A program made the translations under genes and the position numbers. A stretch of DNA of 57,832 nt, taken from Verrucomicrobia bacterium UBA673. Its GTDB lineage: Bacteria; Verrucomicrobiota; Verrucomicrobiia; Limisphaerales; UBA1096. This document shows, piece by piece, positions 1-56,215 of the stretch. The notes under the pieces were generated by a model. The model was not told the DNA's origin and searched no databases. It saw only the letters and a list, made by a program, of their open reading frames with translations. The DNA is taken from the NCBI GenBank assembly GCA_002299785.1, contig DBNL01000070.1:1-57832 (forward strand). Reading direction: 5' to 3'. Within the stretch, counting starts at the first letter, position 1. Every line of letters starts with the position of its first letter.

Positions 1-154
1 ATGACCGGGACCGTGATGACCGGGACCGTGACGATGACAACGAGAGAGAGTCCAATCGTAAGCGGAGCTAACAGGGAAAGAAAACCCAAAGAGTCAATCG
101 GATAGTAAAGAAATTTTTTTTTGGCATGTTTTGGCCAAGGGGGGCAAGTGGAGT

Positions 155-1504
155 TTACTCGTACCGAAGCGCCTCGATGGGATTTAGCCGGGAAGCCTTG
201 TAAGCCGGGAACAAACCGGCAATGATCCCTGTAAGGATGCTGAAGGTGAGCCCTATAAAAAGGGCTTCCCACGTGATGATGGGAACGTTCTGTTGGGGAA
301 TCAGTTGAGTGAGTAGCCAAATCGTTCCGAACGAAGTGGGTAGGCCCAACAATCCACCCAGAATGGCAAGAGAAGAGCTTTCCATCATAATTTGAATAAA
401 AATTGAAAAGTCATTAGCGCCTAGGGCTTTGAAAGTTCCGATCTCGCGAATTCGTTCGTTGATGCTGGCAAGCATGATGTTCATGACCCCGATACCGCCA
501 ACGAAGAGACTCAGCGCTGAGATAATGAGCCCAATTAGGTTTGCATTTTTTATACGTTCCTCTGCGCTAGCAATGCGACTGGCATATGTAGAGAATTCAA
601 AATCCTCAACTCCGTTGTGAGTATGCAGGAGGATATTGCGGGCCTGATCCAAAGCTTTCTCCATGTGGGTTAAGTCCGCTACCTTGATATCTATATCTGT
701 CAAGTTGGGTTCTGGGGTGTCATCAGTTCCACTGGAGACTTTGAATCTCATCCACATAGTGTTAATTGGAATATAAACTACATTGTTTTTGTGATAAAAT
801 CCGTCTCGCCGAAAACGGTATCCGGCATTTCGCCTGGGTCCGGTGCGATCTTTTTGGTTTTGTCTCTCGAGTTCCCTTCGCTTTTGCTCGGCATCGGTCA
901 TATACTCGATGAACATTCCTATTACGGTGAACGGTTGCCGGTTAATATGGATGATTTTCCCCACTGGATTGATCTCTTGATCGGTTGATTCCGGATCACC
1001 GAACAGTCGATTTCGAATATGGGCGCCAATAACGCAAACCGGTTTTGCTCCCCGCTCATCCAACTCGTTAAAAAATCGTCCGTACTTAAGAGTATGTCGA
1101 TTCATCTGCAGTACGACCGGCCAGGCCCCAATGAACTCGGAAGGATAGCAACTGCGCCGTTGATATGTGATACGGGCACGGTGCCCCATTTCCGGGGAAA
1201 CATGAGAAAGCAAGGTGGCCCCTCGTTTGAGAGCATAGACATCATTCAGCGTTTTGCCAGGTGATGTGTCGGCTATATGGTTCTGATAGTCTGGGGGGTC
1301 ACTATCGTGAATGAGTACTTTGTTTAGGCCTCCATAAATAATAATATTGTCCCGCATTCCTTTTTCGAGCCCTTCCACGATGGCGGACATCGCCACCACG
1401 CTGGCTACGCCTAAAATGATTCCGAGCATGGTTAGTACTGACCGAAACCAGTGAGCGTAGACTTCCTGAAGGCCAAGAATGAACAGGCTAAAAAATCTCA
1501 TCAA
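155..1504 (-). CDS. ABC transporter permease, MacB/FtsX (type VII) family, paralog 1 of 3
   Basis: 449-aa ORF. N-terminal TM helix (WFRSVLTMLGIILGVASVVAMSAIV), a roughly 280-aa extracytoplasmic domain, and a C-terminal 3-TM FtsX module with GGIGVMNIMLASINERIREIGTFKALGA. No fused NBD. Clear paralog of the next two ORFs. Confidence 0.85.
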   Translation of the reverse strand: MMRFFSLFILGLQEVYAHWFRSVLTMLGIILGVASVVAMSAIVEGLEKGMRDNIIIYGGLNKVLIHDSDPPDYQNHIADTSPGKTLNDVYALKRGATLLSHVSPEMGHRARITYQRRSCYPSEFIGAWPVVLQMNRHTLKYGRFFNELDERGAKPVCVIGAHIRNRLFGDPESTDQEINPVGKIIHINRQPFTVIGMFIEYMTDAEQKRRELERQNQKDRTGPRRNAGYRFRRDGFYHKNNVVYIPINTMWMRFKVSSGTDDTPEPNLTDIDIKVADLTHMEKALDQARNILLHTHNGVEDFEFSTYASRIASAEERIKNANLIGLIISALSLFVGGIGVMNIMLASINERIREIGTFKALGANDFSIFIQIMMESSSLAILGGLLGLPTSFGTIWLLTQLIPQQNVPIITWEALFIGLTFSILTGIIAGLFPAYKASRLNPIEALRYE

Positions 1505-1582
1505 ATGTCTGCAACGCGTGGTGAGGCAGAATCGGAAAAACAGTGGAAGATCGTGCTATGAGCATCCCTTATGAAACAGCTG

Positions 1583-2992
1583 CTATTCGTAGCGAAGTGC
1601 CTCAATGGGATCCAGCCTCGAAGCCTTAAAGGCGGGAAATAGTCCTGCAATTATTCCAACACAAGCACTAAATGCGATACCAATGGCTAGCACTTCGGCG
1701 GTTATTTGGGGTGTGTTCTCTGTGGGAACCATTTGGGTTAGCAGCCAAACCGAACCATAAGAAGCTGGAATCCCAAATAATCCTCCAAGGAGGGCCAGCG
1801 AGAGACTTTCCATAATTATCTGGAGAAACACGATGAACCCCGTGGCGCCCATCGCTTTGAAGGTGCCTATTTCCCGTATGCGTTCATTAATACTGGCAAG
1901 CATGATGTTCATGATGCCAATTCCCCCGACAATTAGACTCAACGTGGCTATAATCCCTCTAATGATTTGCGCACTATTCAAGCGTTTGTTGATATTGGTT
2001 AATACGCTTTCCTGTGTCCGAAAGGAGAAATCTTGTATGCCATTATGGGAGCGAACCATTACATTTCGAATTTGCCCCATGGCCTTGTCCAGGACATCTA
2101 CATTTAGGGCCTTAACATCGAAATCACTAAGTTTTGGATCTGGGACAAAAACTTCCGGCTCTGAAGATCCGCTTGTGGAAAATCTCCCTTTAATTGAACT
2201 GGAAGCACTGGAGGTCGCCATGCGAAATTTCATCCACATTGTATTTAATGGAATGTGGGCTACGTTATTTCTTCGCCAATAAGGGTCATATCTTGAAGAA
2301 CGACCGAATGATCCACTGCGAGTTGGGCCGCTGCGGGATTGTTGTTGTTGTAATTGGTATTCCCGTTTTCTTCGTTCGGCTTCGTTTTCCATTTTTTTAT
2401 ACATGCCGATAATCTGAAACGGTACATAGTTGATATTGATCTTTTTTCCGACTGGATCAAGTGGCGAGCCATCTAAATTAGTGGGGCCAAATAGACTATC
2501 CCGAATATCTGCCCCAATAACGCAAACATTCTTTGCGAGATGATCTTCATAAGGGCTGAAAAACCGGCCAAATTCAATTTCATAGCCTTCCATTTCCATA
2601 ATGTCAGGCCAGACACCGACAAAGGAGGAAAGATAGGTTCGTTTATCTTTGTAATTTGCGCGCCCATAGGACCAACGCATTTCTGGGGAAACACATTGTA
2701 GCAATGTTGCATTCTTCTTTAATGCATATGCATCCTGCACAGTGATACCAGGCGAGTAGTCCTGTCTATGTTCCTGATAAGAAGGGGGGTCATCCTCATC
2801 GATGTTAATTTTATCTGCGCCACCGTAAACGACCATTTGATCCTTCATGGCATTCTCCATTCCTTTTACAATTGCAGACATCGTGACGAGGCTCACGATT
2901 CCCAGCACCACTCCAAGGATCGTCAACATGGAACGAAACCAGTGAGATGCGATTTCCCTTAATCCTATCAGGAGTGTGTTTAACAGGATCAT
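1583..2992 (-). CDS. ABC transporter permease, MacB/FtsX family, paralog 2 of 3
   Basis: 469-aa ORF with the same architecture and motifs (WFRSMLTILGVVLGIVSLVTMSAIV; GGIGIMNIMLASINERIREIGTFKAMGA). Aligns along its whole length with its neighbours. Confidence 0.85.
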   Translation of the reverse strand: MILLNTLLIGLREIASHWFRSMLTILGVVLGIVSLVTMSAIVKGMENAMKDQMVVYGGADKINIDEDDPPSYQEHRQDYSPGITVQDAYALKKNATLLQCVSPEMRWSYGRANYKDKRTYLSSFVGVWPDIMEMEGYEIEFGRFFSPYEDHLAKNVCVIGADIRDSLFGPTNLDGSPLDPVGKKININYVPFQIIGMYKKMENEAERRKREYQLQQQQSRSGPTRSGSFGRSSRYDPYWRRNNVAHIPLNTMWMKFRMATSSASSSIKGRFSTSGSSEPEVFVPDPKLSDFDVKALNVDVLDKAMGQIRNVMVRSHNGIQDFSFRTQESVLTNINKRLNSAQIIRGIIATLSLIVGGIGIMNIMLASINERIREIGTFKAMGATGFIVFLQIIMESLSLALLGGLFGIPASYGSVWLLTQMVPTENTPQITAEVLAIGIAFSACVGIIAGLFPAFKASRLDPIEALRYE

Positions 2993-3004
2993 TTTTTAAG
3001 TCTG

Positions 3005-4390
3005 TCAATCATATCTTAATGCCTGAATAGGATCCAGTTTCGCCGCTTTGATCGCAGGGAAAAGACCTGCCAGACTGCCGGTGATGACGCTGAAGCCGAA
3101 CGCGATTGTCATTGCAAAGGCGGTCATCACAGGGGGTGTGGTGTCATCGGCAAAATTGGCTAATGTATTCACTAGCATTGGGGAAATAATCAAACCGGCT
3201 ATTCCGCCGGCGATTGCGATGACTATACTTTCAGTCAAGATTTGAAAGAAAACATCCATGTTTGTCGCCCCTATAGATTTTCGGATACCAATTTCTCGGA
3301 CGCGTTCGGAGATGCTGGAGAGCATAATATTTATTATACCAATACCGCCAACCAGCAGGCAGATGCCTGCTATAAACATACCGCTGATACGCTCATTTTG
3401 GATGGACAAGGCAATGTCGCCGGCAAAACCCTCCTGTGTTTCAAATTCAAAGTCCTCCAACCCGTTGTGGGTTTGCATGAGAACATTGCGAACCTGTTGC
3501 AGGGATTTTTCGAGTGTTGAAACATCGTAGATCTTCATCGCGACCGTGGATAAGGATCGGTCCATATTACTTCCCCTGTCATAAGACGAATCAAGTTTGG
3601 ATACGAATGTGTTCAGCGGAACCATAATGGTTGAGTTTTTTCTTAAGTAAACCACCATCGCTCTTCCAGAATTGCGGTCACCTGACCTGAACGCTGCACC
3701 AATATCTCGCTTTTTTGCAGTTTGTCCTGTAGCAAGGGCTTCCTCTTTCTTTTTGCGGTCCTCCTCACTCATGTATTCCTTGAACATTCCAATAATTGTG
3801 AATGGAATATAATTGATCATGATCTTTTCCCCAACGGGTATAATTTCTTCCCCCTGGTTGTCGTATTCTCCAAATAGTTCATTTCGAATTTGGGAACCTA
3901 TGATACAGACCGTATTCGCTAGAAGGTCGTCCATGTCCGAGAAAGGTCGCCCGTGTTCCAGTTCGTGCTCTTCAATTTCCATTAAGCTTGGCCAGGTTCC
4001 TTTTACTGTTGCGTACCGGGCTCTTTTGCTTTTCCTGCTGATACGCAGCGACCCTCGATAGCTTCTCTTTTCAATCACCGGAGTCACATTATAAACTAGG
4101 GGCGCATTTTTTTGTAATGCGTAGACATCTTTCAATGTCATGCCGTTAGCTTCGTCTTCAAGATGTTTTTGGTAATCAGGCAGATCATCGTTGTCATCCA
4201 CAATGATTCGTTCCAGTCCACCAGATTCAGCTAGTGAATCCCTAAGTAGATTTTCTTTTCCCTTTACGAAAGCGGACATGGTTACCAGGCTGGCTACACC
4301 GAGTATAATTCCGAACATCGTGAGCAGGGAACGAAACCAGTTCGCCCAAATTTCCTTGAATCCACTTTCGATTATCGAACCCAGATTCAT
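3005..4390 (-). CDS. ABC transporter permease, MacB/FtsX family, paralog 3 of 3
   Basis: 461-aa ORF with the same architecture (WFRSLLTMFGIILGVASLVTMSAFV; GGIGIINIMLSSISERVREIGIRKSIGA). Its start overlaps the ATPase stop by 4 nt (4387-4390). Confidence 0.85.
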   Translation of the reverse strand: MNLGSIIESGFKEIWANWFRSLLTMFGIILGVASLVTMSAFVKGKENLLRDSLAESGGLERIIVDDNDDLPDYQKHLEDEANGMTLKDVYALQKNAPLVYNVTPVIEKRSYRGSLRISRKSKRARYATVKGTWPSLMEIEEHELEHGRPFSDMDDLLANTVCIIGSQIRNELFGEYDNQGEEIIPVGEKIMINYIPFTIIGMFKEYMSEEDRKKKEEALATGQTAKKRDIGAAFRSGDRNSGRAMVVYLRKNSTIMVPLNTFVSKLDSSYDRGSNMDRSLSTVAMKIYDVSTLEKSLQQVRNVLMQTHNGLEDFEFETQEGFAGDIALSIQNERISGMFIAGICLLVGGIGIINIMLSSISERVREIGIRKSIGATNMDVFFQILTESIVIAIAGGIAGLIISPMLVNTLANFADDTTPPVMTAFAMTIAFGFSVITGSLAGLFPAIKAAKLDPIQALRYD

Positions 4391-5142
4391 GCAGTCATAT
4401 CACGGGCTAATTGGGATTGCTTCGCTTTAATCTCTTTGAATTTGGGGGCTTCTCCGCCCAACTTTGGATCAATTTCGTTGGCGATTTTTCCGTCCCGGAT
4501 CTCGATTCGACGTGGCGTAACCGAGGCAATTTCCGGATCATGTGTCACCAGCATGACGGTTCGCCCTTCCTGGTGCAGTTGGTCAAACATCCCAAGGATC
4601 AATTCACCTGTGTTTGAGTCAAGATTGCCAGTCGGTTCGTCGGCAAAGATGATACGCGGATCATTAACCAAGGCTCGGGCGATTGCAGCGCGTTGTTGTT
4701 GCCCTCCTGACAACTGGGATGGTCTGTGTTTACTACGATCCTCCATGTTGACAGATCTCAGTGAATTCATTGCTCTTTCTCGACGTTCCTTGCTGCTTAA
4801 TCCACTGTAAATCATCGGGAGTTCCACATTTTGCCTAACGGTTAGTTTGGGAAGCAAATTAAAAAACTGAAACACAAAGCCAATTTTCTTGTTTCGGATA
4901 GAGGCTAGTTGGCGAGCGGAGGCATCATGAATCATCATTCCATCAAGATTGATGGTTCCAGAAGTGGGAGTGTCCAAGCATCCCAGGATATGCATTAATG
5001 TGGATTTGCCGCTGCCAGATGGTCCAATAATAGAGATAAATTCACCTGAATCTATATCTAAAGATACCCCGTCGAGAGCGCGAATAGTCTCGCCCCCTAG
5101 GTGGTAGGTTTTGTGAATATTACGAAGTTCAAGGAGTGGCAT
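4387..5142 (-). CDS. ABC transporter ATP-binding protein (MacB/LolD-type NBD, unfused)
   Basis: Walker A GPSGSGKST, ABC signature LSGGQQQRAAIARAL, Walker B IIFADEPTGNLD, H-loop VTHD. Confidence 0.9.
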   Translation of the reverse strand: MPLLELRNIHKTYHLGGETIRALDGVSLDIDSGEFISIIGPSGSGKSTLMHILGCLDTPTSGTINLDGMMIHDASARQLASIRNKKIGFVFQFFNLLPKLTVRQNVELPMIYSGLSSKERRERAMNSLRSVNMEDRSKHRPSQLSGGQQQRAAIARALVNDPRIIFADEPTGNLDSNTGELILGMFDQLHQEGRTVMLVTHDPEIASVTPRRIEIRDGKIANEIDPKLGGEAPKFKEIKAKQSQLARDMTA

Positions 5143-5177
5143 CTGTAATTGTACTTGGTTTTCCAGCCAAACAGAAA

Positions 5178-6527
5178 TTAGTTCCGACTGCCACCACCTG
5201 GTCTACGGCCACTCCCGGGCCCACGCCCGCCACCCGATTTCCGACCTCCTCGCAGTTTATCCATGGCTTTTGCTTTTTCGTCTTCTGTCATCTTTGGCAT
5301 CGCAGCTATCCATTCTTTTCTGCTCATCTCGCCATCGCCATCTGTATCATATTTGGCAACCAGGGGATCAATCTTCTTTTCTTCCTTGGCTTTGGTTTCA
5401 CCCGTTAATGTGATGGTTTCACCGATCATATCATCATCAGGTTTTTCTAAGGCAACTTCATCGCCTTGGTTTAATCCCTTCAATACTTCAACGAAGTTAA
5501 GATCGTTAACACCCACCTCTACCATTTGTTTGGCGTATTTTTCATCCTTTTTGATATAAGCGTAGGTTTCGGTACGTTGTTCGAGCTCATTCCTTTCTGT
5601 GAAAATAGAAGCCAGTTTCGTTGCCACGACACCCTTTGAATTGGCGACTGGTATATTGATGGTGGCTGTCATTCCTGGAATGATGGATTCATCCGTGTTC
5701 TGCAATTTGATACGTGTGGAAAAGCCCTTGATCCCGCTTTTGATTGTAGCCTGAGGGGCAATCCTTTCAACAATACCGTCTATAACCAAGTCGGCTACTG
5801 CTTCAATTTCTATCTTCACCTTCTGGTTTTTTCCCATGCGTGAGACATCGGCCTGGTTGACATGGGAGAGGATGATCAGATTCTTTAAATCCGCAATCTC
5901 CATCACTTCGGTTCCGCTACTCTGGCCTCCCGTGCCGGAAACCGCTTGGCCAATCGATACCGGGCGGGAGAGGACCGTACAGTCAAAAGGAGCACGAATA
6001 CTGGTCTTCGAGAGTTTCTCCTCAGCGAGGTCAAAATCATTCTGTGCGCGATCACGTGAAATTTGAGATACTTCGTATCTGGTTTTGATATTTTGGAACG
6101 CCTCTTCAGATATCAATCCGTCATTAAACAACTTTTTCGATCGTTCGAATTCATTCTTGGACTGCTCCAGTTGGAGGTTGGCGCTATCGATTTGCTTTTT
6201 GCGGGTGTCAATTTCTATCTTTAAATCTTTGTCATCTAGTCTGAATAATAGATCCCCTGCGGCTACCTGGTCTGAAATGTCAACGGGGAGTTCCGCAATT
6301 TTTCCATGTACCTCTGGACGTACACTTACCTTTTCAGCGGGGCTTATTTCTCCAGCCACAGTAACGGAGAAGTTAATGTCTCTTGTCTCAATGATATGTG
6401 TTGTTTCTCGATTCTTGAGCTTGATTAGGTTCGAATTGCTTTCATTTTGATTTTCTGTAAATGAGGTGTACCCAAAATAACCAACTGCCAAAACGAGAAT
6501 TAGGATGATAATATTTTTCATGTACAA
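5178..6527 (-). CDS. HlyD/MacA-type periplasmic adaptor (membrane fusion protein) with a C-terminal EF-hand loop and RGG-rich tail
   Basis: N-terminal TM anchor, lipoyl-like motif (GKIAELPVDISDQVAAGDLLFRLD), a coiled-coil hairpin, a beta-barrel region, and a position immediately upstream of the ABC genes. C-terminus has DTDGDGEMSRKE and GGRKSGGGRGPGSGRRPGGGSRN. Confidence 0.8.
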   Translation of the reverse strand: MYMKNIIILILVLAVGYFGYTSFTENQNESNSNLIKLKNRETTHIIETRDINFSVTVAGEISPAEKVSVRPEVHGKIAELPVDISDQVAAGDLLFRLDDKDLKIEIDTRKKQIDSANLQLEQSKNEFERSKKLFNDGLISEEAFQNIKTRYEVSQISRDRAQNDFDLAEEKLSKTSIRAPFDCTVLSRPVSIGQAVSGTGGQSSGTEVMEIADLKNLIILSHVNQADVSRMGKNQKVKIEIEAVADLVIDGIVERIAPQATIKSGIKGFSTRIKLQNTDESIIPGMTATINIPVANSKGVVATKLASIFTERNELEQRTETYAYIKKDEKYAKQMVEVGVNDLNFVEVLKGLNQGDEVALEKPDDDMIGETITLTGETKAKEEKKIDPLVAKYDTDGDGEMSRKEWIAAMPKMTEDEKAKAMDKLRGGRKSGGGRGPGSGRRPGGGSRN

Positions 6528-6724
6528 AATCGGTGGGAAGTCTAGTTCCTTCGCGGTATTAGAGCAATCTTAAGGTTAATGTAAGGAAGCTCCTGTTAGA
6601 TTGACCTCTATTTGTACGCAAAAAACATCGAATTGTTTCAATTAATTGCATTTGAGCCTGTTCCTTGGCAGAATTCCTATTCTTTTTGAACGGAGGGTCG
6701 AGAGGCAATAAATCAAGCTGCGGG

Positions 6725-8050: not shown

Positions 8051-8093
8051 GTTTCTACCTTTTGCTTTCAGTTGGAAAACTATAAAAAAACCA

Positions 8094-8121
8094 TTGACAG
8101 TAGGTTAAATCGGCCTAATCT
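8094..8121 (+). promoter_or_regulatory. Candidate sigma-70-type promoter for the cys operon
   Basis: TTGACA (8094-8099), a 16-nt spacer, then TAATCT (8116-8121), about 35 nt upstream of the cysH start. Sequence match only. Confidence 0.3.
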
Positions 8122-8153
8122 CAACAAACCCTATCGGGTATAGTTGATTTATT

Positions 8154-10433: not shown

Positions 10434-10438
10434 TTTTA

Positions 10439-11716: not shown

Positions 11717-11745
11717 AAAAAAGCGACGTATTTATTACGTCGCCT
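11715..11745. terminator. Bidirectional rho-independent terminator between cysN and the peroxiredoxin gene
   Basis: An 8-bp stem GCGACGTA (11723-11730) / TACGTCGC (11736-11743) with loop TTTAT. An A-run precedes it on the plus strand, which gives a T-run after the hairpin on the minus strand. Confidence 0.6.
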
Positions 11746-11767
11746 TGGCTTTAAAACCTTTCGAGAG

Positions 11768-12403: not shown

Positions 12404-12418
12404 TTTGTTTGCCTAAAC

Positions 12419-46060: not shown

Positions 46061-46062
46061 TG

Positions 46063-47691: not shown

Positions 47692-50196
47692 TTAGCTAGA
47701 AACCTTGGTATCTTCGCCCTTGGCTTTGGCTTTTTTCTGGGTGAAGACCAGTTTTTCATCCTTGGCGGAGATGGAAACCATTACACCTTCGCGCAGGTTG
47801 CCACGGATAATTTCCTCAGCCATCGGGTCCTCAAGGTGTTTTTCGACGGCCCGGCGCATAGGGCGTGCCCCGTAGGAGGGGTCGTAGCCCTGATTCCGCA
47901 GTAGGTCACGGGCGGACTCGTCCAACTCGAAGTGTAGGTTGCGTTGAGCAAGTCGCTTCTCGACCTTCTCAAGCTCGAGTTCAAGAATCTGGGTGAGTTC
48001 TTCCTTGCCAAGAGAGCGGAACACAACGATGTCGTCGAAACGATTGAGGAATTCCGGTCGAAAAACTTTCTTGGCCTCCTCAGTGAGATTTTCCTTCATC
48101 CGCTCGTGGTCCTGGTCGTCGTCGGGTGCGGTGAAGCCCATGGTGGCTCCCTTTTTGAGTCGCGCGGCTCCGACATTAGAGGTGAGCAGGATGATCGTAT
48201 TACGGAAGTCCACGTGCCTGCCGAAGCTGTCGGTCAGTTTGCCCTCCTCGAGAATTTGGAGGAGCATGTTCATGACGTCGGGATGGGCTTTCTCGACCTC
48301 GTCAAACAGTACGACGGAGTAGGGGTTGCGGCGCACCTTTTCGGTCAACTGGCCGCCCTCTTCGTAGCCGACGTAGCCAGGGGGTGAGCCGACAAGGCGC
48401 GAAACGTTGAACTTCTCCATGTACTCGGACATGTCGAGTTGCACGAGCGATTTACTGTCGCCGAACATGTTCTCGGCGAGACTTTTGGCTAGGAGTGTTT
48501 TGCCGACGCCGGTCGGGCCGAGCATCATGAAAGCACCGATCGGTCGGGCGGGATCCTTAAGGTCGGCACGGCTGCGGCGAAGAGCCTTGCAGAGGGTCTC
48601 GACGGCTGAACTTTGTCCAATGACAATCTTGGAAATTTCCTTTTCCATCGAGAGGAGTTTTTGCACATCGCCCTGTTCCATGCGCTTGAGAGGGATGCCG
48701 GTCCACTTGGCCACAACGAACATGATTTCATCCTCATCGACCTTGACGCGGGTGTCCTCGTTGTTTTTCTTCCACTCGGCTAGCGTGTTCTCGAGGTCCT
48801 CCTTAGCCTTCTTTTCCTCGTCGCGCATCGAGGCGGCTTCCTCGAATTTCTGCTCCTTGATGGCCTTCTCCTTTTTGATGCGGGTTTCCTCGATCGCCAA
48901 CTCGAAGTTTTTGACCTCGGGCGGACGGGTCATGGCCTTGATGCGGGCGCGCGAGCCGGCTTCGTCCATGATGTCGATCGCCTTGTCCGGCAGGAAACGC
49001 CCGGTGATGTATCGGTCGGAAAGCCTGACGGCGGCGATGACAGCAGCATCGGTCAGTTCCATTTTGTGGTGGTCCTCGTAACGCGGACGCAGTCCCTTGA
49101 GAATATCGATGGTATCATCGATGGAGGGCGGCTCGACCTTGACGGACTGGAACCGGCGCTCGAGGGCGGCGTCTTTCTCGATATATTTGCGGTATTCGTT
49201 GAGGGTGGTGGCTCCGACGCATTGCAGCTCGCCACGGCTCAGGGCAGGCTTGATAATGTTGGAGGCGTCCATCGTGCCTTCGGCGGAGCCGGCCCCGACG
49301 ATGGTGTGCAACTCATCGATGAACAGGATGACGTTTTTCGCGCGGCGAATCTCGTCCATCACGGCCTTGATGCGTTCCTCGAACTGGCCGCGGTACTTGG
49401 TTCCTGCGACCATCAGAGCGAGGTCGAGGGTGATGACACGCTTTTCGCGCAAAATTTCCGGGACGTTGCCCTTGATGACTTCCTGTGCGAGTCCCTCGAC
49501 TATGGCCGTCTTGCCAACACCGGCTTCTCCGAGTAGCACTGGGTTGTTCTTGGTGCGGCGGCAGAGCACTTGGATGACGCGCTCGATCTCCTCGGCGCGC
49601 CCGATGACTGGATCCATCTCACCTTTTTTGGCGATCTCGGTGAGGTCGCGGCCGAACGCCTTGAGTGCAGGTGTCTTTACCTGCTTCTTGTTGTCGCCGG
49701 ACTCATCTTCCTCCATGCCGGCAGCGACGCCGTCATCGCCCTCGAAGTTCGGATCCAACTCGTGCAGGATTTTCTGTCGGCAAAGGTCAATGTCGATGTC
49801 GAGAGTCTTCAGCACTCGCGCCGCGACGCCCTCTCCCTCTCTCAGTAAACCCAGCAGGATGTGCTCGGTGCCAACGTAGGTGTGGTGCAGCGCCTTGGCT
49901 TCCTTTTTAGAAAGCTCGAGCACTTTTTTAACGCGCGGGGTGTAAGGGATGTTGCCGGCCAGTTTCTGGTCCGGGCCGGTGCCGACCTGTTTCTCGACCT
50001 CGAGGCGCACAGTCTCCAAATTGAGGCCCATTTTTTGAAGGACATTGACGGCGACGCCCTGGCCTAGGTTGATCAGGCCCAACAGTAGATGCTCGGTGCC
50101 CACGAAGCTGTGGTTGAATCGGTCGGCCTCCTTCCTCGCCAGCGCCAGTACTTGCTGGGCGCGCGGGGTGAAGTTGTTCATTGGCTCGTCACTCAT
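47692..50196 (-). CDS. clpC: ATP-dependent Clp protease ATP-binding subunit ClpC
   Basis: Double Clp-N repeat, NBD1 [10 protein letters not shown], a short UVR-type middle domain ([11 protein letters not shown]), NBD2 [11 protein letters not shown], and a ClpP-docking-type tripeptide (MGF). Confidence 0.9.
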
Positions 50197-50280
50197 AAAA
50201 ATACCTGCCCACTATGGCCGTCTCGACGGTCTATGTCCAGCTTGGGCATAGCTGCCGCTGCGATTGGCCAAGCGATGGTT

Positions 50281-51381
50281 TTATTCCTCATTCTGTTCTG
50301 TTTTTCCGATGTCTGGCATGTCTGGGCGACCTACCTTCAAGAGCCGGCTTCGCAGTAGGTTGGCTCGGAGGATGTCCCGTTTCTCTGCAGAGAGTTTTCC
50401 CTCCAGGGTTTTCTGCAGGTGAGCCGGCTGGGTGATGATGAAAAGCTCTTCGGTCAACGCCGGCTTGTTGCCGGGGAACAGGGAAAGGTCGATACCGAGA
50501 CGGAAGAGCGACAGCAGATTCATGGTTTCCTTGGAGGAGATGCTGTGAGAGTTGGCCAGGATGCCGTAGGCCCGGCCGATGTGGTTATAGACCATTTTGG
50601 CCTTGTTCTCGAGGAGCTTGGCCCGGGCATTCTCCTCGTGGTCGATGATCTGCAGGAGAACCTTGTTGAGCCGCTCGACGATGTCCGACTCCGTCTCGCC
50701 GAGGGTCATCTGGTTGGAGACCTGGAAGACGTTGCCCAGCGCCTCCGTGCCTTCTCCGTGCAGACCACGGACGGCCAGACCAAGCTTGTTGACCGCCTGG
50801 ATAATCTGGTTAATCTGCTCGCTCAAGACTAGCCCTGGCAGGTGCAGCATCGCACTGACACGAATGCCGGTGCCAAGGTTGGTGGGGCAGGCGGTCAGGT
50901 AGCCGCGTCGCTTGCAGAAGGCGTAGTCGAGGTTGGACTCAAGCGCGGTGTCGAACTGGTCGACCGCCATCCAAGCTTTGTCCATCTGCAATCCCGGTAG
51001 TAGGGCCTGCATGCGCAGGTGATCTTCCTCGTTGATCATTACACAAAGCGCCTCGTCGCTGCTAAGCACCATGCCGCTGCCGGCTGTCTTGGCGGCGTGC
51101 TCCCGGCTGATGAAATGGCGTTCGACGAGCAGTTGCTTGTCCAGCGTGGGCAACTCCTCCATGCCGGCGTGAAAGCCGTCCCGCATCGGGGCCACTTCCA
51201 TGACGTTGTCGAGGATTTGCTTGAAGGTTTTTACTCGAACCGTTTTTTTTGCCCAACCCGGGAACGGTAAGTTGGCGAGATTGCGGGCCAACCGCACTCG
51301 GCTAGACAGGACGATCTTATTGGAGGGCCCCTCGCGGCGAGCCGCCTCTGCCGGCTTGGAAAGGATTTCGTTGATGTTCAT
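50281..51381 (-). CDS. mcsB: Protein arginine kinase McsB (ATP:guanido phosphotransferase family)
   Basis: SSRVRLARNL and CPTNLGTGIRVS motifs of guanido kinases. Position between mcsA and clpC. Confidence 0.85.
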   Translation of the reverse strand: MNINEILSKPAEAARREGPSNKIVLSSRVRLARNLANLPFPGWAKKTVRVKTFKQILDNVMEVAPMRDGFHAGMEELPTLDKQLLVERHFISREHAAKTAGSGMVLSSDEALCVMINEEDHLRMQALLPGLQMDKAWMAVDQFDTALESNLDYAFCKRRGYLTACPTNLGTGIRVSAMLHLPGLVLSEQINQIIQAVNKLGLAVRGLHGEGTEALGNVFQVSNQMTLGETESDIVERLNKVLLQIIDHEENARAKLLENKAKMVYNHIGRAYGILANSHSISSKETMNLLSLFRLGIDLSLFPGNKPALTEELFIITQPAHLQKTLEGKLSAEKRDILRANLLRSRLLKVGRPDMPDIGKTEQNEE

Positions 51382-51384
51382 CTC

Positions 51385-51891
51385 TCAGACTATGCTGGAC
51401 TCGGAGAAATCCGATTTAACCCGGGAAATCTCGTCTCGAACCTCCGCCGCCTTTTCATAATCCTCCTTGGCCACTGCCTTGTCCAGCTTGGTTTGTAGTG
51501 AGTGCAACCGATCCACGTATACTTTCGTCTGCTGCCAGACCGCCGGTGCCTTGCCGGTGTGACGTGTGCCCTTGTGCATGCTCTTGAGAAGACTCTCCAC
51601 TCCTTCCGTAAAATGGTCGTAACAATCGGGGCAACCCAGCCGGCCGGTCTTCTTGAAATCCGTCTGGCTGAAGCCACACTTGGGGCATTTCCCCGTGGTG
51701 CTACCGGACTCTTCCATCTCCTGCGAGGCGCCGAGGCCCAACAATAGGTCGGCCAGCGAAAAGCCGGTGGGGTCATCCACGCCCTTCGCTTTCGAGCAAC
51801 TCTCGCACAGGTCGATCTTCTTGGTCTTACCCTCAACCATCTGGGTCAAGTGAACCGTCGCCTCATTTTCTTTGCAAATATCGCAGAGCAT
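51385..51891 (-). CDS. mcsA: McsA-like activator (Cys-cluster zinc fingers plus UVR motif)
   Basis: CDICK...CESC and CPKC...CPDC clusters, and a C-terminal UVR-like EDYEKAAEVRDEI. Confidence 0.75.
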   Translation of the reverse strand: MLCDICKENEATVHLTQMVEGKTKKIDLCESCSKAKGVDDPTGFSLADLLLGLGASQEMEESGSTTGKCPKCGFSQTDFKKTGRLGCPDCYDHFTEGVESLLKSMHKGTRHTGKAPAVWQQTKVYVDRLHSLQTKLDKAVAKEDYEKAAEVRDEISRVKSDFSESSIV

Positions 51892-52108
51892 CCGTCCAGG
51901 GAAAAATTGTCGTTCGTACAGTTAGTCTAAACGGGTCAAGCCGTTTAACCCCTCAAAAACAAAGAAAACATAGCACGAAAACTACCGAAATCAAAGGCGC
52001 AAGGCTGCTAAGTTGCCTATTGAAAAATTGGCCAAGCGCGGGCTGGGGTTAGCTCTCCGGGCCGGTTGTGGAAAAAGCCCCATAGACACCCATCTTGCAC
52101 CGGATAGC

Positions 52109-53195: not shown

Positions 53196-54083
53196 TTGCC
53201 CGGGCGGTGGATTGGCCTAACTTGTTCACCGATGCTCGGCGTGTATCATCAACTGCTCGACGCTACCATTGGCCACCTCGAGTCGCTCAAGCAGCGGGGT
53301 GTGCGCTACGTCGATGCGTCGCCGGAGTCGCTGTCGCGCCTGGCCAGGCCGGCTGCACAAAAAACCACCACCGCCCCGCTTGAACAGGCGGCGCCAACCC
53401 TCATTCCGCAGCGTCCCGACGAGCCAAGCGTTTACGACTCGCCCAATCTCTCCGCCGCCGATAAAGAATCCGCGATGACCAAGCTGCGTGACGAGGCGCT
53501 GGCCTGCGCCCAGTGCGCGCACCTCGTATCGACGCGAACGCAGGTCGTGTTCGGGGTCGGCACCGTCCATGCGGAGTTGATGCTCATCGGCGAGGCGCCG
53601 GGGCTGGACGAGGACAAGGAGGGTGAGCCGTTCGTCGGCGCGGCCGGCCAACTGCTGACCAAGATCATTGAGGCCACCGGACTCGATCGTGACAAGGTTT
53701 ACATCGCCAACATCCTCAAGTGCCGCCCTGACACACCCGGCAAGGTATACGGCAACCGCAAGCCGCGCCCCGAGGAAATGGAAACCTGTTTCTCGTGGGT
53801 CAAGCGGCAGATCGAGATCATCCAGCCCAGGGTGATGGTTGCGCTGGGTGGAACAGCCGTCGAGGGCCTGCTCGGCAAAATGCCGTCCGGCATCACTCGA
53901 CTGCGCGGCAACTGGCAGGAGTACCGCGGCTTGCCGGTGATGCCCACTTTCCACCCGTCCTACCTGCTGCGCAACCAGTCGTGGGTGATCAAGCGACACG
54001 TCTGGGAGGACATGATGCAGGTGATGGAACGCCTCAACATGCCCATCAGCGAAAAACAAAGAGGCTACTTCAAACGCCGGTAG
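53196..54083 (+). CDS. Family-4 uracil-DNA glycosylase (Fe-S type) with an N-terminal extension
   Basis: CAQCAHL Cys motif, [23 protein letters not shown], and HPSYLLRN. The true start is uncertain (53196 or the Met at 53232). Confidence 0.8.
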
Positions 54084-54377
54084 CGCTTGGCTGGATATTT
54101 TGTTTTCAACCGCGAATTCACGCGAAGAAACACGAATGAAACCAGAGAATCCCTTTTCCCTCGAGGGAGAAGGTGCCGAAGGCCGGATGAGGGTGAACGG
54201 GCTTGGCCAAGTGCGCTTGGTGGTCACTCCAATCCTGTCTATCCTTGTTTATTTTTCATGACCAAATTGGAACATGAATGGACAGGATTATTTTGAACGG
54301 GCAAACAACCGGCTCATTTTACTGTCCTCAAAGCGGTGCAGAGAACCGGACTGCAAAACGCTCCCGCGAAAGTCCCA

Positions 54378-54424
54378 CCCAAAAACAAACGCAGCCGGCG
54401 TCCTTTTGGGAGCAACCGGCTGCG
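54378..54424 (-). terminator. Candidate rho-independent terminator for the small minus-strand gene
   Basis: A 9-bp stem CGCAGCCGG (54390-54398) / CCGGCTGCG (54416-54424) with a 17-nt loop. On the minus strand it is followed by TTTGTTTTTGGG. Confidence 0.45.
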
Positions 54425-54470
54425 GGTCAGTTCTTATTCAGTATTTCCAAATCGGGCCTTCGCCCGTGCG

Positions 54471-54731
54471 TTACAAGGAGAGTGACTCCTCGTTGATTCG
54501 GGTGAACGAATCGAGTTGGGGGGCCTTGAAGCCACCCCGGTCGGCGTTCGCCAGATTCAGGATCGTGTCCAGATCCTCGCTGACAGTCATCCGTCCCCAT
54601 CGGGTCTGAATCATTGTCTGGTCACCCACCGGTTCAACGGAGATGACCGTGTCGAGGTTGAACAGAATCTTGGAATCTTCCTCGGTACAACCGGTCGGCG
54701 AAGCCTGTGTCAGTTTCACGAAGTGTGCCAT
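54471..54731 (-). CDS. Hypothetical small protein (86 aa)
   Basis: ORF with an internal Met start (MAHFVKLTQ...) and a downstream terminator-like hairpin. No recognisable family. Confidence 0.4.
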   Translation of the reverse strand: MAHFVKLTQASPTGCTEEDSKILFNLDTVISVEPVGDQTMIQTRWGRMTVSEDLDTILNLANADRGGFKAPQLDSFTRINEESLSL

Positions 54732-54874
54732 TTTCTGTTTCCTTTCTTCCATGCTGATTGACCTTCAATCAACAACGAATTCATTAAGGCACAAGCCGGC
54801 GGCGCGTTCAAGGGCAATTACATTTGTGACCGTTTTGTGACCTTGGCCAAGAGGAACGCACTAGGTCCTCGAAG

Positions 54875-56215
54875 TTATTCCGCCTGGCCAAGCGCTTGGC
54901 GGTCGGGGCGGCTGCGGTGATAGAGCCACCCGAACTGTGCCGCTTGACCAAGCGAATAGATGATGTAGGCGAAGATGGCTCCGGCCAGCCAGTCGCCGTG
55001 CGCCCCCACGGTCAGCCCCGCCACGATCACCACGAGAAACATCGCCACTGACTCGGTGACGCTGCGGGTGCTGTGCGAGTACACGAGCAGTCCCTGGAAA
55101 AAGCTACTGCCAAAGCCGAATGCGGCCAGTGTCAACGCCGCCCAGACGGCTTGGGAGGCAAGCTTGGCCAAGTTCGTATTGAGGCCGCTGACGGTGCCAA
55201 ACCAGCCGTTGGCCAACGGCGAGGCGACGATCAGTAGTTGCAGGCAGAACACGCCCAGCGCGGCCTGCCATGCGAAGCGCCGCAGGGCTGTGTAGCCGCC
55301 GGGCCGCTCGACCAGCGCCACCACGACTTCTAGAAAGGCGAGGCTGATCGAGCGAAACAAAAATGTGAAGCCGTTGAGTGCCGGGAGGATGGCCAGCGAC
55401 TCGGTTGGCGACGGCATGCGGCTGATGCCGGCGGTGAGCATCGGCTGCGCGGCGAGGCCAAGCAGCGGGCTCAAGGCGAGCGGAATGTAAAATGTGAGAA
55501 ACCGTTTGCGGTTGAGGGGCGGCTCGTTGGACCGCGCCGTGGGCAGGATGTCGCGAACGATTGGCCGAACTTTCCACGCGATGTAAATGGCCTCGATCAC
55601 TACGCCGGCGGAGACGGCTGCTGTGGCGGCGATGATGCCAAGCTCCGGCTGTCCGACGCGCTTGGCCATGGCGTGGCAGATGAACAGCACCGACACGACA
55701 GCGAAGAGGCGGGTGATCGTGCCCCAAGTGACGGTTCTCGAGTGGCCGAACCGGATCAGCACGCCCTGGTTGAATCGCCGGTGGGCGATGGCCCACGTCC
55801 ACGGCGTCATGATGATCATGCCGAGTCGGCTCGCCTCGAGGATGTCTGACTCGACGCCGAGCAGTCCGCCTACAAGCAGGTCGAACAGCGGCGTGACGGC
55901 GACGAGCAGGTGTAGCGCCGACAGGCCGCCACCGGCGATCATCATGAAGAGCCACAGTTTTTTGTACGAGGCGAGATCGCGGCTGAGCTTGGTGCTGGCG
56001 GTGAGCAGCATGATGATCGGCGCCTCGATCAGCAGCGAGAGCGGGAACACCACGCCGCCGTACGCGCCGAGGTTGACTTCCGGGTTGGCCAGGCGCGCCA
56101 CCACGGCGCTAAGCAGCGGCAACTCGATGCCCATCATCAGCCAGCTCAGGGCGAGAGGGAACCACGTCTTCCAGACATCAATACTGGTGACGGGTTGACT
56201 TTTTAAGTTGTGCAT
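54875..56215 (-). CDS. Polytopic membrane protein, MATE/MOP-superfamily-like (about 12 TM)
   Basis: 446 aa and almost entirely hydrophobic helices. The N-terminal region resembles MATE-type transporters, but I cannot verify the family. Confidence 0.5.
   Translation of the reverse strand: MHNLKSQPVTSIDVWKTWFPLALSWLMMGIELPLLSAVVARLANPEVNLGAYGGVVFPLSLLIEAPIIMLLTASTKLSRDLASYKKLWLFMMIAGGGLSALHLLVAVTPLFDLLVGGLLGVESDILEASRLGMIIMTPWTWAIAHRRFNQGVLIRFGHSRTVTWGTITRLFAVVSVLFICHAMAKRVGQPELGIIAATAAVSAGVVIEAIYIAWKVRPIVRDILPTARSNEPPLNRKRFLTFYIPLALSPLLGLAAQPMLTAGISRMPSPTESLAILPALNGFTFLFRSISLAFLEVVVALVERPGGYTALRRFAWQAALGVFCLQLLIVASPLANGWFGTVSGLNTNLAKLASQAVWAALTLAAFGFGSSFFQGLLVYSHSTRSVTESVAMFLVVIVAGLTVGAHGDWLAGAIFAYIIYSLGQAAQFGWLYHRSRPDRQALGQAE

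Follow-up and report, generated by a model that had tools for sequence, protein, structure and literature searches.

The stretch of DNA analysed here (the window; 57,832 nt) carries 33 exact matches to the 8-bp palindrome TTGGCCAA, at precisely the 33 start positions listed in an earlier note on this sequence. Genes on both strands carry copies, and further copies are intergenic. The window also includes a five-gene MacB/FtsX-ABC-HlyD island (155-6527, minus strand) with a GC content of 0.45-0.47. Each line below describes one copy of TTGGCCAA unless another form is named.

131-138: intergenic, 3' of a MacB-like permease gene (155-1504, minus strand)
5946-5953: HlyD-family gene (5178-6527, minus strand), read xTT-GGC-CAA, Ile-Gly-Gln; sole copy inside the genes of the low-GC island
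7496-7503: waaA (6665-8050, plus strand), Leu-Ala-Lys; extended to CCGCTTGGCCAAGCGG at 7492-7507
7784-7791: waaA, Leu-Ala-Lys; extended to GGCTTGGCCAAGCC at 7781-7794
9261-9268: APS kinase gene (8897-9517, plus strand), Ile-Gly-Gln
9762-9769: PAPS_reduct/CysD-like gene (9510-10433, plus strand), Leu-Ala-Lys
15334-15341: Wzy_C gene (14677-16116, minus strand), Ile-Gly-Gln; kept in relatives L002, L034 and L005
15890-15897: same Wzy_C gene, Leu-Ala-Asn
18486-18493: ManC-like nucleotidyltransferase gene (18084-19196, plus strand), Leu-Ala-Lys; TTAGCCAA in relative L002
18798-18805: ManC-like gene, Leu-Ala-Lys; TTGGTCAA in relative L002
19161-19168: ManC-like gene, Leu-Ala-Lys; the site reads CTGGCCAA or CTCGCCAA in more distant relatives, and the copy was therefore gained within the sub-lineage
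20059-20066: phoH, Leu-Ala-Lys; CTCGCAAA or CTCGCCAA in relatives L034, L005 and L007
20235-20242: ybeY (20172-20672, plus strand), Leu-Ala-Lys; kept in all 7 of the 7 relatives aligned there
21999-22006: recO (21384-22019, plus strand), Leu-Ala-Lys-Arg
22052-22059: clpB (22027-24633, minus strand), Leu-Ala-Asn; the site reads CTGGCCAG or CTGGCCAA in the closest relatives, hence a recent gain or repeated loss
29647-29662: perfect 16-mer palindrome GCGCTTGGCCAAGCGC (core 29651-29658), intergenic, directly after a hairpin with a 10-bp stem and a T6 run, downstream of a prepilin-like gene
31626-31649: two tandem 12-nt units, TTGGCCAAGCGC followed by TTGGCCAAGCGC (cores at 31626 and 31638), with another perfect 16-mer palindrome spanning 31634-31649; in the signal peptide predicted for a cytochrome c (likely start, 31585), the pair of units is read as a doubled Trp-Pro-Ser-Ala
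32803-32810: cytochrome c gene, Leu-Ala-Lys; common to relative L004
33133-33140: cytochrome c gene, Leu-Ala-Lys; common to relative L004
36547-36554: tatD (36343-37203, plus strand), Leu-Ala-Lys-Arg
36643-36650: tatD, Leu-Ala-Lys
39105-39112: open reading frame without Pfam match (38937-39425, minus strand), downstream of an ECF sigma factor gene, Leu-Gly-Gln
39141-39148: same open reading frame, Leu-Gly-Gln; 36 nt from the copy at 39105
42902-42909: lpxB (42484-43668, minus strand), Leu-Ala-Lys
44628-44635: enolase-superfamily gene (43668-45080, minus strand), Leu-Gly-Gln
44876-44883: same enolase-superfamily gene, Trp-Pro-Ser
50264-50271: intergenic, between a ClpC-like gene and mcsB
52028-52035: intergenic, between a McsA-like gene and a class IV aminotransferase gene
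54203-54210: intergenic, downstream of a UDG-superfamily gene
54843-54850: intergenic, between open reading frames 54274-54609 (plus strand) and 54875-56215 (minus strand)
54887-54900: flipped (everted) form GCCAAGCGCTTGGC, centred on a second palindrome, AAGCGCTT
55164-55171: open reading frame without Pfam match (54875-56215, minus strand), Leu-Ala-Lys
55209-55216: same open reading frame, Leu-Ala-Asn; 45 nt from the copy at 55164

Base composition predicts 0.82 copies in the window and dinucleotide-preserving shuffles give 1.38 ± 1.28 (maximum, 5), an enrichment of 24- to 40-fold that agrees with the roughly 40-fold first estimated. Among palindromic 8-mers in the window, TTGGCCAA ranks first, the runner-up being CGCCGGCG with 9 copies. 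Under the maximal-order Markov null that the earlier note had proposed, the observed/expected ratio is only ∼1.1 (33 versus 30.25), because the 5- to 7-mer subwords of the motif itself (TTGGC, CTTGGC/GCCAAG, TGGCCA) hold the excess; under a codon-aware null, the excess stays. Rather than a bare octamer, the signal consists of a graded palindrome, gcgCTTGGCCAAGcgc.

Enrichment is 28-fold for the 8-mer, 1- to 6.5-fold for its one-off variants, and ∼250-fold for 10- to 12-mers. Given a complete core and one complete arm, the opposite arm carries C, G, and C in 90%, 72%, and 71% of cases, respectively. Flanks beyond ±8 nt have background composition, and there is thus no longer element. The three extended palindromes described before (7492-7507, 7781-7794, and 29647-29662) were recovered, as was the flipped arrangement at 54887-54900, to which a further one at 31629-31642 can be added. 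Counting both strands of the window, there are 29 half-sites GCCAAGCGC, versus 1.26 expected; 18 of the 29 are unattached to TTGGCCAA, slightly fewer than the two dozen originally counted alone, and several of their coordinates had been off by 1 to 13 bases (24246 is 24259, 32283 is 32292, and 41386 is 41381). The graded consensus of this lineage-specific, highly iterated palindrome is GCGCTTGGCCAAGCGC, with TTGGCCAA as its core. The core in turn falls within a 12-nt lattice, TTGGCCAAGCGC, that is doubly palindromic, its dyads centred on GGCC and on GCGC. Copies of TTGGCCAA are clustered (CV, 1.1), neighbour distances of 50 to 100 nt being in 2.6- to 3.2-fold excess. In the window, their positions are unrelated to promoters and to the ends of genes, and the single intergenic copy (of six) that adjoins a terminator-like hairpin lies outside the hairpin itself.

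Within the window, 18 copies are read as Leu-Ala-Lys/Asn, 6 as x-Gly-Gln, and 3 as Trp-Pro-Ser, which adds a third frame to the Leu-Ala-Lys and Trp-Pro-Ser readings already noted, and 6 are intergenic. Pooled clade DNA (812 kb) gives a frame split of 346:268:59, compared with 18:6:3 in the window. Noncoding copies, also noted earlier, are in fact the denser ones, with 1.8/kb versus 0.5/kb in coding DNA (window) and 1.36/kb versus 0.90/kb (pooled DNA). The 27 coding copies compare with 4.8 ± 2.3 after within-gene shuffling of synonymous codons (maximum, 10 of 200) and with 1.9 ± 1.3 after permutation of codons. The codon-aware observed/expected ratio in the window is 5.6 and not near 1, and Leu-Ala-Lys usage and codon bias, which the earlier note had weighed as an explanation, leave the excess unaccounted for. 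TTGGCCAA encodes 18 of the 46 Leu-Ala-Lys/Asn tripeptides, versus 3.6 expected from codon usage, and the synonymous first base is T over C by ∼3:1 in the motif context, compared with a genome-wide TTG:CTG ratio of 1:1.9.

The tripeptides LAK (29 versus 9.3 expected), AKR (20 versus 5.6), and LGQ (17 versus 5.4), all encoded by cTTGGCCAAGcgc in two of its frames, are each ∼3-fold enriched. Across 12 outgroups, ClpB has RHK/RVK, LHD/LDE, and LAD/LVE at the positions of the clade's motif sites. Proteins have been reshaped by the motif, ClpB residues having been replaced in ways that created copies.

Nine syntenic loci from related MAGs (ClpB, 84 to 93% identical) carry 0.7 to 1.7 TTGGCCAA copies/kb (120 copies in 102 kb); GC-matched outgroup Verrucomicrobiota carry 30 copies in 915 kb (∼70 more distant loci, ∼0.03/kb). 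Of 120 metagenome contigs containing the 16-mer GCGCTTGGCCAAGCGC, 86 are motif rich, with 0.77/kb counted after dropping the site used for finding them. Judging by these sampled loci and contigs, the motif is a genome-wide property of an uncultured marine Verrucomicrobiota clade rather than a feature of one locus; confinement to the window, which the earlier note had considered as a counterargument, is contradicted by nine MAGs and 86 contigs. The organism behind the window belongs to this marine clade and is not a proteobacterium. The clade is diverse, with orthologous DNA down to ∼66 to 75% identity. The low-GC island serves as a negative control inside the window: its half-site density of 0.64/kb equals the outgroup level, compared with 3.5/kb elsewhere in the window, and compositionally foreign DNA has not gained the signature. 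One genuine phage contig (L212) has an intermediate signature. The synonymous-codon null, the three frames, the denser spacers, the 18 of 46 tripeptides, and the clade-wide spread bear out the earlier suggestion that the DNA itself, and not a peptide motif, is what is selected or spread.

Conservation at orthologous positions depends on divergence. Shared motif occupancy plateaus at 42 to 46% in pairs that are 65 to 82% identical, above the 12 to 20% of control 8-mers, but equals that of controls in pairs 88 to 98% identical, and one-off variants are less stable than control 8-mers. No protection of motif sites is thus visible over short divergences, and any per-site selection or drive must be weak; permissive sites stand at ∼45% occupancy because ordinary mutation erodes copies. 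At synonymous sites, codons within the motif are only marginally better conserved than other codons: the third base of GCC is kept in 96% versus 85% (p = 0.05) and the first base of TTG in 70% versus 58% (not significant). Close relatives differ at the motif by single substitutions, clustered no more than in controls, and both gains and losses are seen between genomes 93% identical. On this comparative record, the motif arises and disappears through single-nucleotide substitutions, and changes that create or complete it appear to be fixed far above expectation in all frames and spacers, even when an amino acid changes.

The 28-fold peak on the exact 8-mer and the cooperative extension to 12 to 16 bp lead us to infer a clade-peculiar, sequence-specific, probably dimeric DNA-recognizing protein. 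We consider TTGGCCAA to be probably a HIP-type, DNA-level, protein-recognized motif held in balance between fixation bias and mutation, where a sequence-specific fixation bias would keep up the motif and ordinary mutation would oppose it. More tentatively, its likeliest agent would be an orphan methyltransferase-linked recombination, transformation, or repair pathway favouring motif-bearing DNA, a candidate picked because of the analogy with cyanobacterial HIP1; under such an agent, the motif would tag self DNA. Pfam searches of the window revealed no methyltransferase, Vsr, or competence genes, and pattern searches of 812 kb of motif-rich clade DNA (∼0.2 genome equivalents) revealed no m5C methyltransferase motif IV, no Vsr motif, and no convincing N6/N4 methyltransferase. 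The footprint of 12 to 16 bp exceeds typical methyltransferase specificities, which counts against a methyltransferase agent. No earlier description of the TTGGCCAA motif was found in the literature.

Much of this would also be expected of an uptake signal, whereby the clade's uptake machinery prefers motif-bearing DNA and motif alleles, being taken up and recombined more often, spread by molecular drive with no need of a cis function. The density of ∼1/kb, enriched one-off variants, several frames, proteome remodelling, and absence from the foreign island match USS/DUS (PMC2817400, PMC1939737); the plateau in occupancy and the stepwise single substitutions are as drive models predict; and HIP1 is now itself proposed as an uptake/recombination signal (bioRxiv 10.64898/2026.06.24.733823, 10.1101/2024.09.10.611283). 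Nevertheless, known uptake sequences are nonpalindromic whereas TTGGCCAA is a cooperative palindrome, its copies are clustered rather than evenly spaced, only one intergenic copy neighbours a hairpin, and the intermediate signature of the phage contig would not be produced by uptake-driven recombination unless the phage is temperate; we therefore regard an uptake signal as unlikely. It is quite improbable, too, that the motif has no function and results from a sequence-specific repair bias turning near matches into it, whether by very-short-patch-like repair with a GGCC/TGGCCA cytosine methyltransferase or by Elhai's G-mC-directed mismatch-repair ratchet. GGCC and GCGC are classical m5C targets with the central GC that Elhai's model requires (PMC4390886), the weak per-site constraint and equilibrium dynamics suit an epiphenomenon, and the partial signature on the phage contig suits a process inside the cell. 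However, deamination products, expected to be depleted, are enriched (TTAGCCAA/TTGGCTAA, observed/expected of 6.5 to 7.6; TTGACCAA/TTGGTCAA, 2.7 to 5), the pattern searches yielded no Vsr or m5C methyltransferase motifs in ∼0.2 genome equivalents, the spacing is clustered where the ratchet predicts even saturation at ∼1 kb, and enrichment spans 12 to 16 bp and lone arms, past the neighbours of a 4- to 6-bp methyltransferase site.

A binding-site array for a clade-specific nucleoid-associated or chromosome-organizing protein, with weak selection per site, would suit the cooperative 12- to 16-bp palindrome as the target of a dimeric protein and the overrepresented site pairs at 50 to 100 nt, and a role in chromosome architecture was proposed for HIP1 by Xu et al. 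(PMC5861425). Most copies are nonetheless intragenic, their positions turn over between relatives, they have no tie to promoters or gene ends, and there is no known candidate protein, which makes such an array very improbable. Scarcely credible, finally, is a Leu-Ala-Lys peptide preference, codon or codon pair bias, or REP/MITE-type mobile-element remnants. Two-thirds of the window's coding copies do read Leu-Ala-Lys/Asn, but this reading was rejected on the 5.6-fold excess left after the synonymous-codon null; the pooled frames and denser spacers, the preference for a synonymous T only in the motif context, outgroup ClpB proteins without LAK at motif positions, and, for a mobile element, the background flanks all speak against it.

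Returning to the HIP-type motif that we favour, several known systems invite comparison. Dcm/Vsr very-short-patch (VSP) repair in E. coli leaves an excess of CCWGG and a deficit of CTWGG. Genome-wide oligomer frequencies are skewed there as for TTGGCCAA, the E. coli agent being a sequence-specific DNA-processing enzyme analogous to the one proposed here, but the E. coli effect is few-fold on 4- to 5-mers with deamination products depleted, whereas for TTGGCCAA the 8- to 12-mers are enriched 28- to 250-fold and such products are enriched as well. Chi is an overrepresented 8-mer that acts on recombination. It is asymmetric, strand skewed, and ∼five times rarer than TTGGCCAA, for which, as a palindrome, strand skew is impossible; HIP1 has been called Chi-like in transformation assays (bioRxiv 10.1101/2024.09.10.611283). 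The USS of Pasteurellaceae and DUS of Neisseriaceae share with TTGGCCAA a density of ∼1 copy/kb, point substitutions with biased fixation, proteome coevolution via a few preferred tripeptides, clade-specific variants, and scarcity in acquired DNA (PMC2817400, PMC1939737). They are, however, nonpalindromic 9- to 12-mers recognized by a competence receptor, and DUS often pair as terminators, with which TTGGCCAA is not associated.

The likeness to HIP1 or uptake sequences suggested in the earlier note is supported by shared density, frames, and clade-wide spread and, for HIP1, by palindromic extensions. Alternate HIPs of HIP1-poor cyanobacteria (GGCGCC-type, GCCGGC-type, and GCsGC; Elhai 2015) are, like TTGGCCAA, lineage-restricted, hyperabundant GC-rich palindromes with a central GC and similar density (PMC4390886), but they are sporadic, found in single genomes, and each accompanied by a matching methyltransferase, whereas TTGGCCAA is common to a diverse clade. 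HIP1 itself (GCGATCGC, cyanobacteria) and TTGGCCAA are both GC-rich 8-bp palindromes at ∼0.3 to 2.7 copies/kb, tens- to hundreds-fold above expectation, located in genes in several frames and in spacers, with extended palindromic forms and an excess of one-off variants; each is clade-wide, shared between genomes above control octamers, and low in foreign DNA (PMC4390886, PMC5861425). TTGGCCAA differs in its sequence, its phylum (Verrucomicrobiota), the lack of a cognate methyltransferase among the window's Pfam matches and in the 812 kb, its 12-nt lattice with lone arms that are themselves enriched, and its short-range clustering; for HIP1, a periodicity of tens of kb has been reported. HIP1 has long been unexplained, with links to methyltransferases and transformation (PMC4390886, PMC5861425, bioRxiv 10.1101/2024.09.10.611283), and TTGGCCAA offers a second independent case for why such palindromes exist.

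The octamer TTGGCCAA is present in 33 copies in the window, at exactly the start positions listed in the earlier note, compared with 0.82 copies expected from the base composition (56% G+C; A 0.208, C 0.272, G 0.291, T 0.229) and 1.38 ± 1.28 copies (maximum 5) in dinucleotide-preserving shuffles. It is the top palindromic 8-mer of the window, the runner-up having 9 copies. The extended palindromes quoted in that note were likewise correct, and the flipped form GCCAAGCGCTTGGC does occur, twice. The half-site GCCAAGCGC has 29 copies against 1.26 expected, 18 of them apart from the octamer; several of the coordinates quoted for it were a few bases off. Over-representation is visible from 5- to 6-mers up, in TTGGC, CTTGGC/GCCAAG and TGGCCA, so that under a maximal-order Markov model the octamer is nominally accounted for by its own sub-words (33 observed versus 30.25 expected). 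Position frequencies around the core describe a graded palindrome, gcgCTTGGCCAAGcgc. Neither a tRNA scan nor an Rfam search at the gathering threshold found a tRNA gene or a family match in the whole 57.8 kb.

The gene map, built from ORFs corrected by Pfam, includes housekeeping genes: waaA, cysHCDN-like genes, gap, holB, trpA, a manC-like gene, phoH, ybeY, recO, clpB, the genes for MTHFR and a cytochrome c, tatD, an ECF sigma factor gene, folA, thyA, lpxB, mlaDEF, clpC-mcsB-mcsA, a UDG-superfamily gene and a ferritin-like gene. Individual features are as follows.

155-6527: five-gene island of three MacB/FtsX permeases, an ABC ATPase and an HlyD-family protein, G+C 0.45-0.47
28729-29586: prepilin-like gene, of a kind common in this phylum
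31585: probable start (not 31423) of the cytochrome c gene, with a predicted signal peptide, MNFRFLPILIAALVWPSAWPSA, that carries two tandem 12-nt motif units
31626-31649: these two tandem units, encoding WPSAWPSA inside the predicted signal peptide
47692-51891: operon of a ClpC-like ATPase, a McsB-type ATP:guanido phosphotransferase and a UVR-motif McsA-like protein, an arrangement best known in Firmicutes
53196-54083: UDG-superfamily protein with an N-terminal extension of ∼118 residues without a Pfam match

In this map, 27 of the 33 octamers are intragenic and the other 6 lie within 3,265 nt of noncoding DNA, giving densities of 0.5 per kb in coding and 1.8 per kb in noncoding sequence. The coding copies are read in three frames.

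TTG-GCC-AAx (Leu-Ala-Lys/Asn): 18 of 27 copies
xTT-GGC-CAA (x-Gly-Gln): 6 of 27 copies
xxT-TGG-CCA-A (Trp-Pro): 3 of 27 copies

When synonymous codons were shuffled within each gene, leaving proteins and codon usage unchanged, only 4.8 ± 2.3 coding copies were expected (maximum 10 in 200 shuffles) compared with the 27 observed, and codon permutation gave 1.9 ± 1.3. The earlier note had reasoned that a codon-aware ratio of observed to expected copies near 1 would reduce the excess to Leu-Ala-Lys usage and codon bias; the ratio is far from that value. The octamer spells 18 of the 46 Leu-Ala-Lys/Asn tripeptides in the window, compared with 3.6 expected by codon usage, and these tripeptides are themselves in threefold excess (46 versus 15.8). 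LAK, AKR and LGQ, which correspond to cTTGGCCAAGcgc translated in two frames, are each enriched ∼3-fold. An explanation by peptide or codon usage is ruled out by both codon-aware nulls, by the frame usage, by the density in spacers and by the alignment of ClpB with outgroup sequences described below.

Beyond the core, the consensus GCGCTTGGCCAAGCGC extends the palindrome in a symmetry-preserving way, with cooperative completion of its arms. In copies with a complete core and one complete arm, the opposite arm has its C in 90%, its G in 72% and its C in 71% of the cases, and the flanks of lone GCCAAGCGC arms are weaker than those of arms inside palindromes, so that it is the complete palindrome that acts like a cooperative target. 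Past ±8 nt the flanks do not depart from background composition, and a longer repeat element is thereby excluded. Relative to outgroup Verrucomicrobiota, CTTGGC/GCCAAG and GCTTGG/CCAAGC are enriched 5.9- and 5.2-fold, one-mismatch variants of the octamer merely 1- to 6.5-fold, and 10- to 12-mers such as CTTGGCCAAG and GCTTGGCCAAGC ∼250-fold; these last ratios are partly inflated by contig selection, since the metagenome contigs were chosen via the 16-mer itself (octamer densities were corrected for this). A second palindrome, AAGCGCTT, is enriched 9-fold, and every enriched word is a sub-word of the periodic, doubly palindromic (TTGGCCAAGCGC)n. Copies are clustered rather than evenly spaced (CV of 1.11, a short-range measure on fragments of ≤58 kb): neighbor distances of 50 to 100 nt are 2.6- to 3.2-fold more frequent than under random placement in the window, nine syntenic loci from metagenome-assembled genomes (MAGs; L002-L009 and L034) and the 86 motif-rich metagenome contigs among the matches listed. 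In the pooled motif-rich loci, the mode of these distances is broad (72 to 96 nt), and 13 neighboring pairs are exactly 12 nt apart. For HIP1, the highly iterated palindrome of cyanobacteria, periodicity along the chromosome over tens of kilobases has been reported. A role as a terminator or RNA hairpin was rejected, given the weak folding of the 16-mer (−5.5 kcal/mol, z = −1.8) and the lack of a consistent relation of copies to gene ends; in the window, one of the six intergenic copies is next to a terminator-like hairpin, and it lies outside that hairpin.

The window belongs to a marine group. The closest relatives of its ClpB (84 to 93% amino acid identity) come from MAGs labeled Verrucomicrobiae, Verrucomicrobiales or Verrucomicrobiota that originate from the Fram Strait, Tara Oceans, the Red Sea, Saanich Inlet, the Arabian Sea and other marine sites, and the next relatives (≤74%) are subdivision 3, Limisphaerales or Pedosphaera-type genomes. 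Examples of MAGs from the clade are FRAM_RAS_EGC1617_bin38/CALJHX01, SZUA-1142/DQOE01, ARS81/NYYJ01 and NIOZ-UU28/JACNJE01. The contig itself is also present in an ENA metagenome assembly; no records were found for the proteins at the window ends, which we looked up to extend the sequence. The nine syntenic loci (73 to 93% nucleotide identity) contain 0.68 to 1.73 octamers per kb, and their top 8-mers are motif-derived words, whereas ∼70 more distant Verrucomicrobiota loci contain 0 to 0.3 per kb. In total, 120 copies in 102 kb of close loci compare with 30 in 915 kb of GC-matched outgroups, and the octamer is 28-fold more common than in GC-matched outgroup genomes. At least 120 JGI metagenome contigs, mostly marine, contain the 16-mer; among the matches listed, 86 of 120 are motif rich (0.77 copies per kb without the site used to find them) and 34 are at background level (0.07 per kb). 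Where listed contigs overlap each other or the window, they are 66 to 99% identical. Confinement of the motif to the window, the other outcome that the earlier note had regarded as fatal to its reading, is ruled out by the nine MAG loci and the 86 listed contigs. We therefore conclude that the motif is genome-wide in a diverse clade, as seen on fragments rather than complete genomes. Judging from composition and overlaps rather than direct classification, all of the rich contigs would belong to one Verrucomicrobiota clade.

The motif is roughly half as dense in the sublineage of the window (0.57 copies per kb in the window and 0.68 in L002) as in its sister lineages L005, L007, L009 and L034 (1.3 to 1.7 per kb), and the sublineage often shows CTGGCCAA where these have TTGGCCAA. 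The bias thus seems to differ in strength between lineages of the clade. Compared with the outgroup loci L010-L081, the pooled rich loci are also depleted of CCWGG (∼2-fold) and GGWCC (2.3-fold) and enriched in GTAC (2.3-fold) and in CTCGAG and GTCGAC (3.6-fold), which suggests that the clade has had a different restriction-modification history.

Projecting the relatives onto the window coordinates for site-by-site comparison revealed that sites switch between the motif and one-off variants, mainly CTGGCCAA/TTGGCCAG, a synonymous TTG/CTG change, and that gain and loss both occur, even at 93% genome identity. At 88 to 98% identity, shared occupancy (the probability that a motif site of one genome is matched by a motif in the orthologous DNA of the other) equals that of control 8-mers (0.56 versus 0.53 and 0.72 versus 0.71), while at 65 to 82% identity it plateaus at 0.42 to 0.46 compared with 0.12 to 0.20 for the controls, with the proviso that the orthologous pairs come from related genomes and these comparisons are thus not independent. 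One-off variants are less stable than control 8-mers in the orthologous pairs. Conservation at synonymous positions of the motif exceeds that of identical codons outside it by a small margin only (third base of GCC, 96% versus 85%, P = 0.05; first base of TTG, 70% versus 58%, not significant). In a codon alignment with 12 outgroups, the clade's motif sites in ClpB correspond to changes from RHK/RVK to LAK, from LHD/LDE/ISE to LAK and from LAD/LVE to LGQ, so motif creation has exchanged amino acids of this conserved protein. Some of these sites needed at least three changes, and templated multinucleotide patch conversion was considered for that reason; it was rejected because motif sites of close relatives differ by single substitutions that cluster no more than in controls. 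The overall picture is one of balance, with copies eroded by ordinary mutation and re-created at permissive sites by a sequence-specific bias.

The low-GC island has a GC3 of 0.44 to 0.51, compared with about 0.75 elsewhere in the window, and is probably a recent horizontal acquisition. Its half-site density (0.64 per kb) is at outgroup level, versus 3.5 per kb in the rest of the window; the lower G+C content alone predicts just a ∼35% reduction. This low density fits with a signature that accumulates over the time of residence in the genome. Among viral sequences in IMG/VR, L212 (IMGVR_UViG_3300035070_002510, positions 1-12322) stands out from about 125 other matches, which were at background. 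It is genuinely a phage contig, encoding a helicase, an exonuclease, a primase, a terminase and a serine recombinase. The top 6-, 8- and 10-mers of L212 are words of the motif family (CTTGGC, 41 copies; CCAAGCGC, 11; GCGCTTGGCC, 6). Its signature is intermediate, and it is a candidate phage of the clade.

We infer that neighbor-dependent mutation bias cannot raise a single exact 8- to 12-mer 28- to 250-fold and that a sequence-specific protein is required, probably a dimer in view of the cooperative dyad symmetry. By analogy with HIP1 and the alternate HIPs, which have cognate methyltransferases and a link to transformation, we favor a HIP-type element whose agent would be a putative methyltransferase-linked pathway of recombination, transformation or repair. 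Pfam detected no methyltransferase, Vsr or competence genes in the window, and patterns for m5C, N6 and N4 methyltransferase and Vsr motifs yielded nothing credible among 4,802 ORF fragments from 812 kb of clade DNA (∼0.2 genome equivalents). A simple VSP-type repair bias of a methyltransferase and Vsr is disfavored: it expects depletion of the C-to-T deamination products TTGGCTAA/TTAGCCAA and TTGGTCAA/TTGACCAA, as is typical of VSP word bias, whereas here these are enriched 2.7- to 7.6-fold.

Drive by DNA uptake, of the USS/DUS type to which the earlier note had compared the motif, is a serious rival. However, uptake sequences are asymmetric 9- to 12-mers that occur in both orientations, are taken up preferentially by the competence machinery and frequently form inverted pairs that act as terminators, whereas the unit here is a cooperative palindrome without terminator association, its copies are clustered, and a genuine phage contig shares the signature in intermediate form. 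A further reading, in which the palindrome would be a self-recognition tag for natural transformation or recombination (an uptake or Chi-like signal of a putative clade-specific, possibly methylation-dependent protein) in a widespread, uncultured lineage of marine Verrucomicrobiota, is speculative and, in our estimate, rather unlikely. If true, the system would have no precedent outside Proteobacteria and cyanobacteria, and the HIP phenomenon would have arisen independently here, with enough force to remodel conserved proteins, ClpB among them.

HIP-type palindromes have a research history of ∼30 years, nearly all of it on cyanobacteria. Where they come from and what they do is still debated, and they have been attributed to methylation-directed repair, to chromosome architecture and to a signal for uptake or recombination. 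With an independent instance, which has another sequence and lies in a diverse clade of a distant phylum, a comparative test becomes possible of which genes (methyltransferases, type IV pilus/competence genes and nucleases) accompany such palindromes in the two phyla alike. How strongly a DNA-level bias can shape proteins is illustrated as well, by both the tripeptide excess and the swapped ClpB residues. The motif also has a practical use, as a sharp k-mer signature by which this clade can be binned and foreign DNA and candidate phages in it flagged. In the full-text literature covered, which took in the sequence itself, iterated palindromes in Verrucomicrobia and TGGCCA methyltransferases, no account turned up of a hyper-abundance of TTGGCCAA or of such palindromes in Verrucomicrobia; an earlier mention elsewhere is possible.

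Among known systems, HIP1 proper is GCGATCGC in cyanobacteria, accompanied by the methyltransferases DmtA (GATC) and DmtC (CGATCG), whereas the present host is a verrucomicrobiote and GCGATCGC has just 5 copies in the window. REP and MITE elements are intergenic and similar past their core, whereas the present flanks are at background beyond ±8 nt and most copies are intragenic. The motif thus lacks defining features of HIP1 proper, USS/DUS, VSP word bias and REP/MITE elements. The cognate methyltransferase aside, it has every property of the HIP class that was tested: it is a GC-rich palindromic octamer, the top palindromic 8-mer, tens-fold above expectation; it occurs in several frames and in noncoding DNA, with no explanation from codon or peptide usage; its flanks preserve the palindrome; and it is shared clade-wide, its shared sites exceeding control octamers only among the more distant relatives. 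The nearest described parallel is HIP1, together with the alternate HIPs of cyanobacteria, which have cognate orphan methyltransferases in the same genomes and match this motif in density, in having palindromic extensions and enriched one-off variants, and in being conserved across a clade (PMC4390886, PMC5861425); in recent work, HIPs have been tied to a methylation-dependent boost of natural transformation and to the uptake machinery (bioRxiv 10.1101/2024.09.10.611283, 10.64898/2026.06.24.733823). We classify the motif as an independent HIP-like element in a second phylum.
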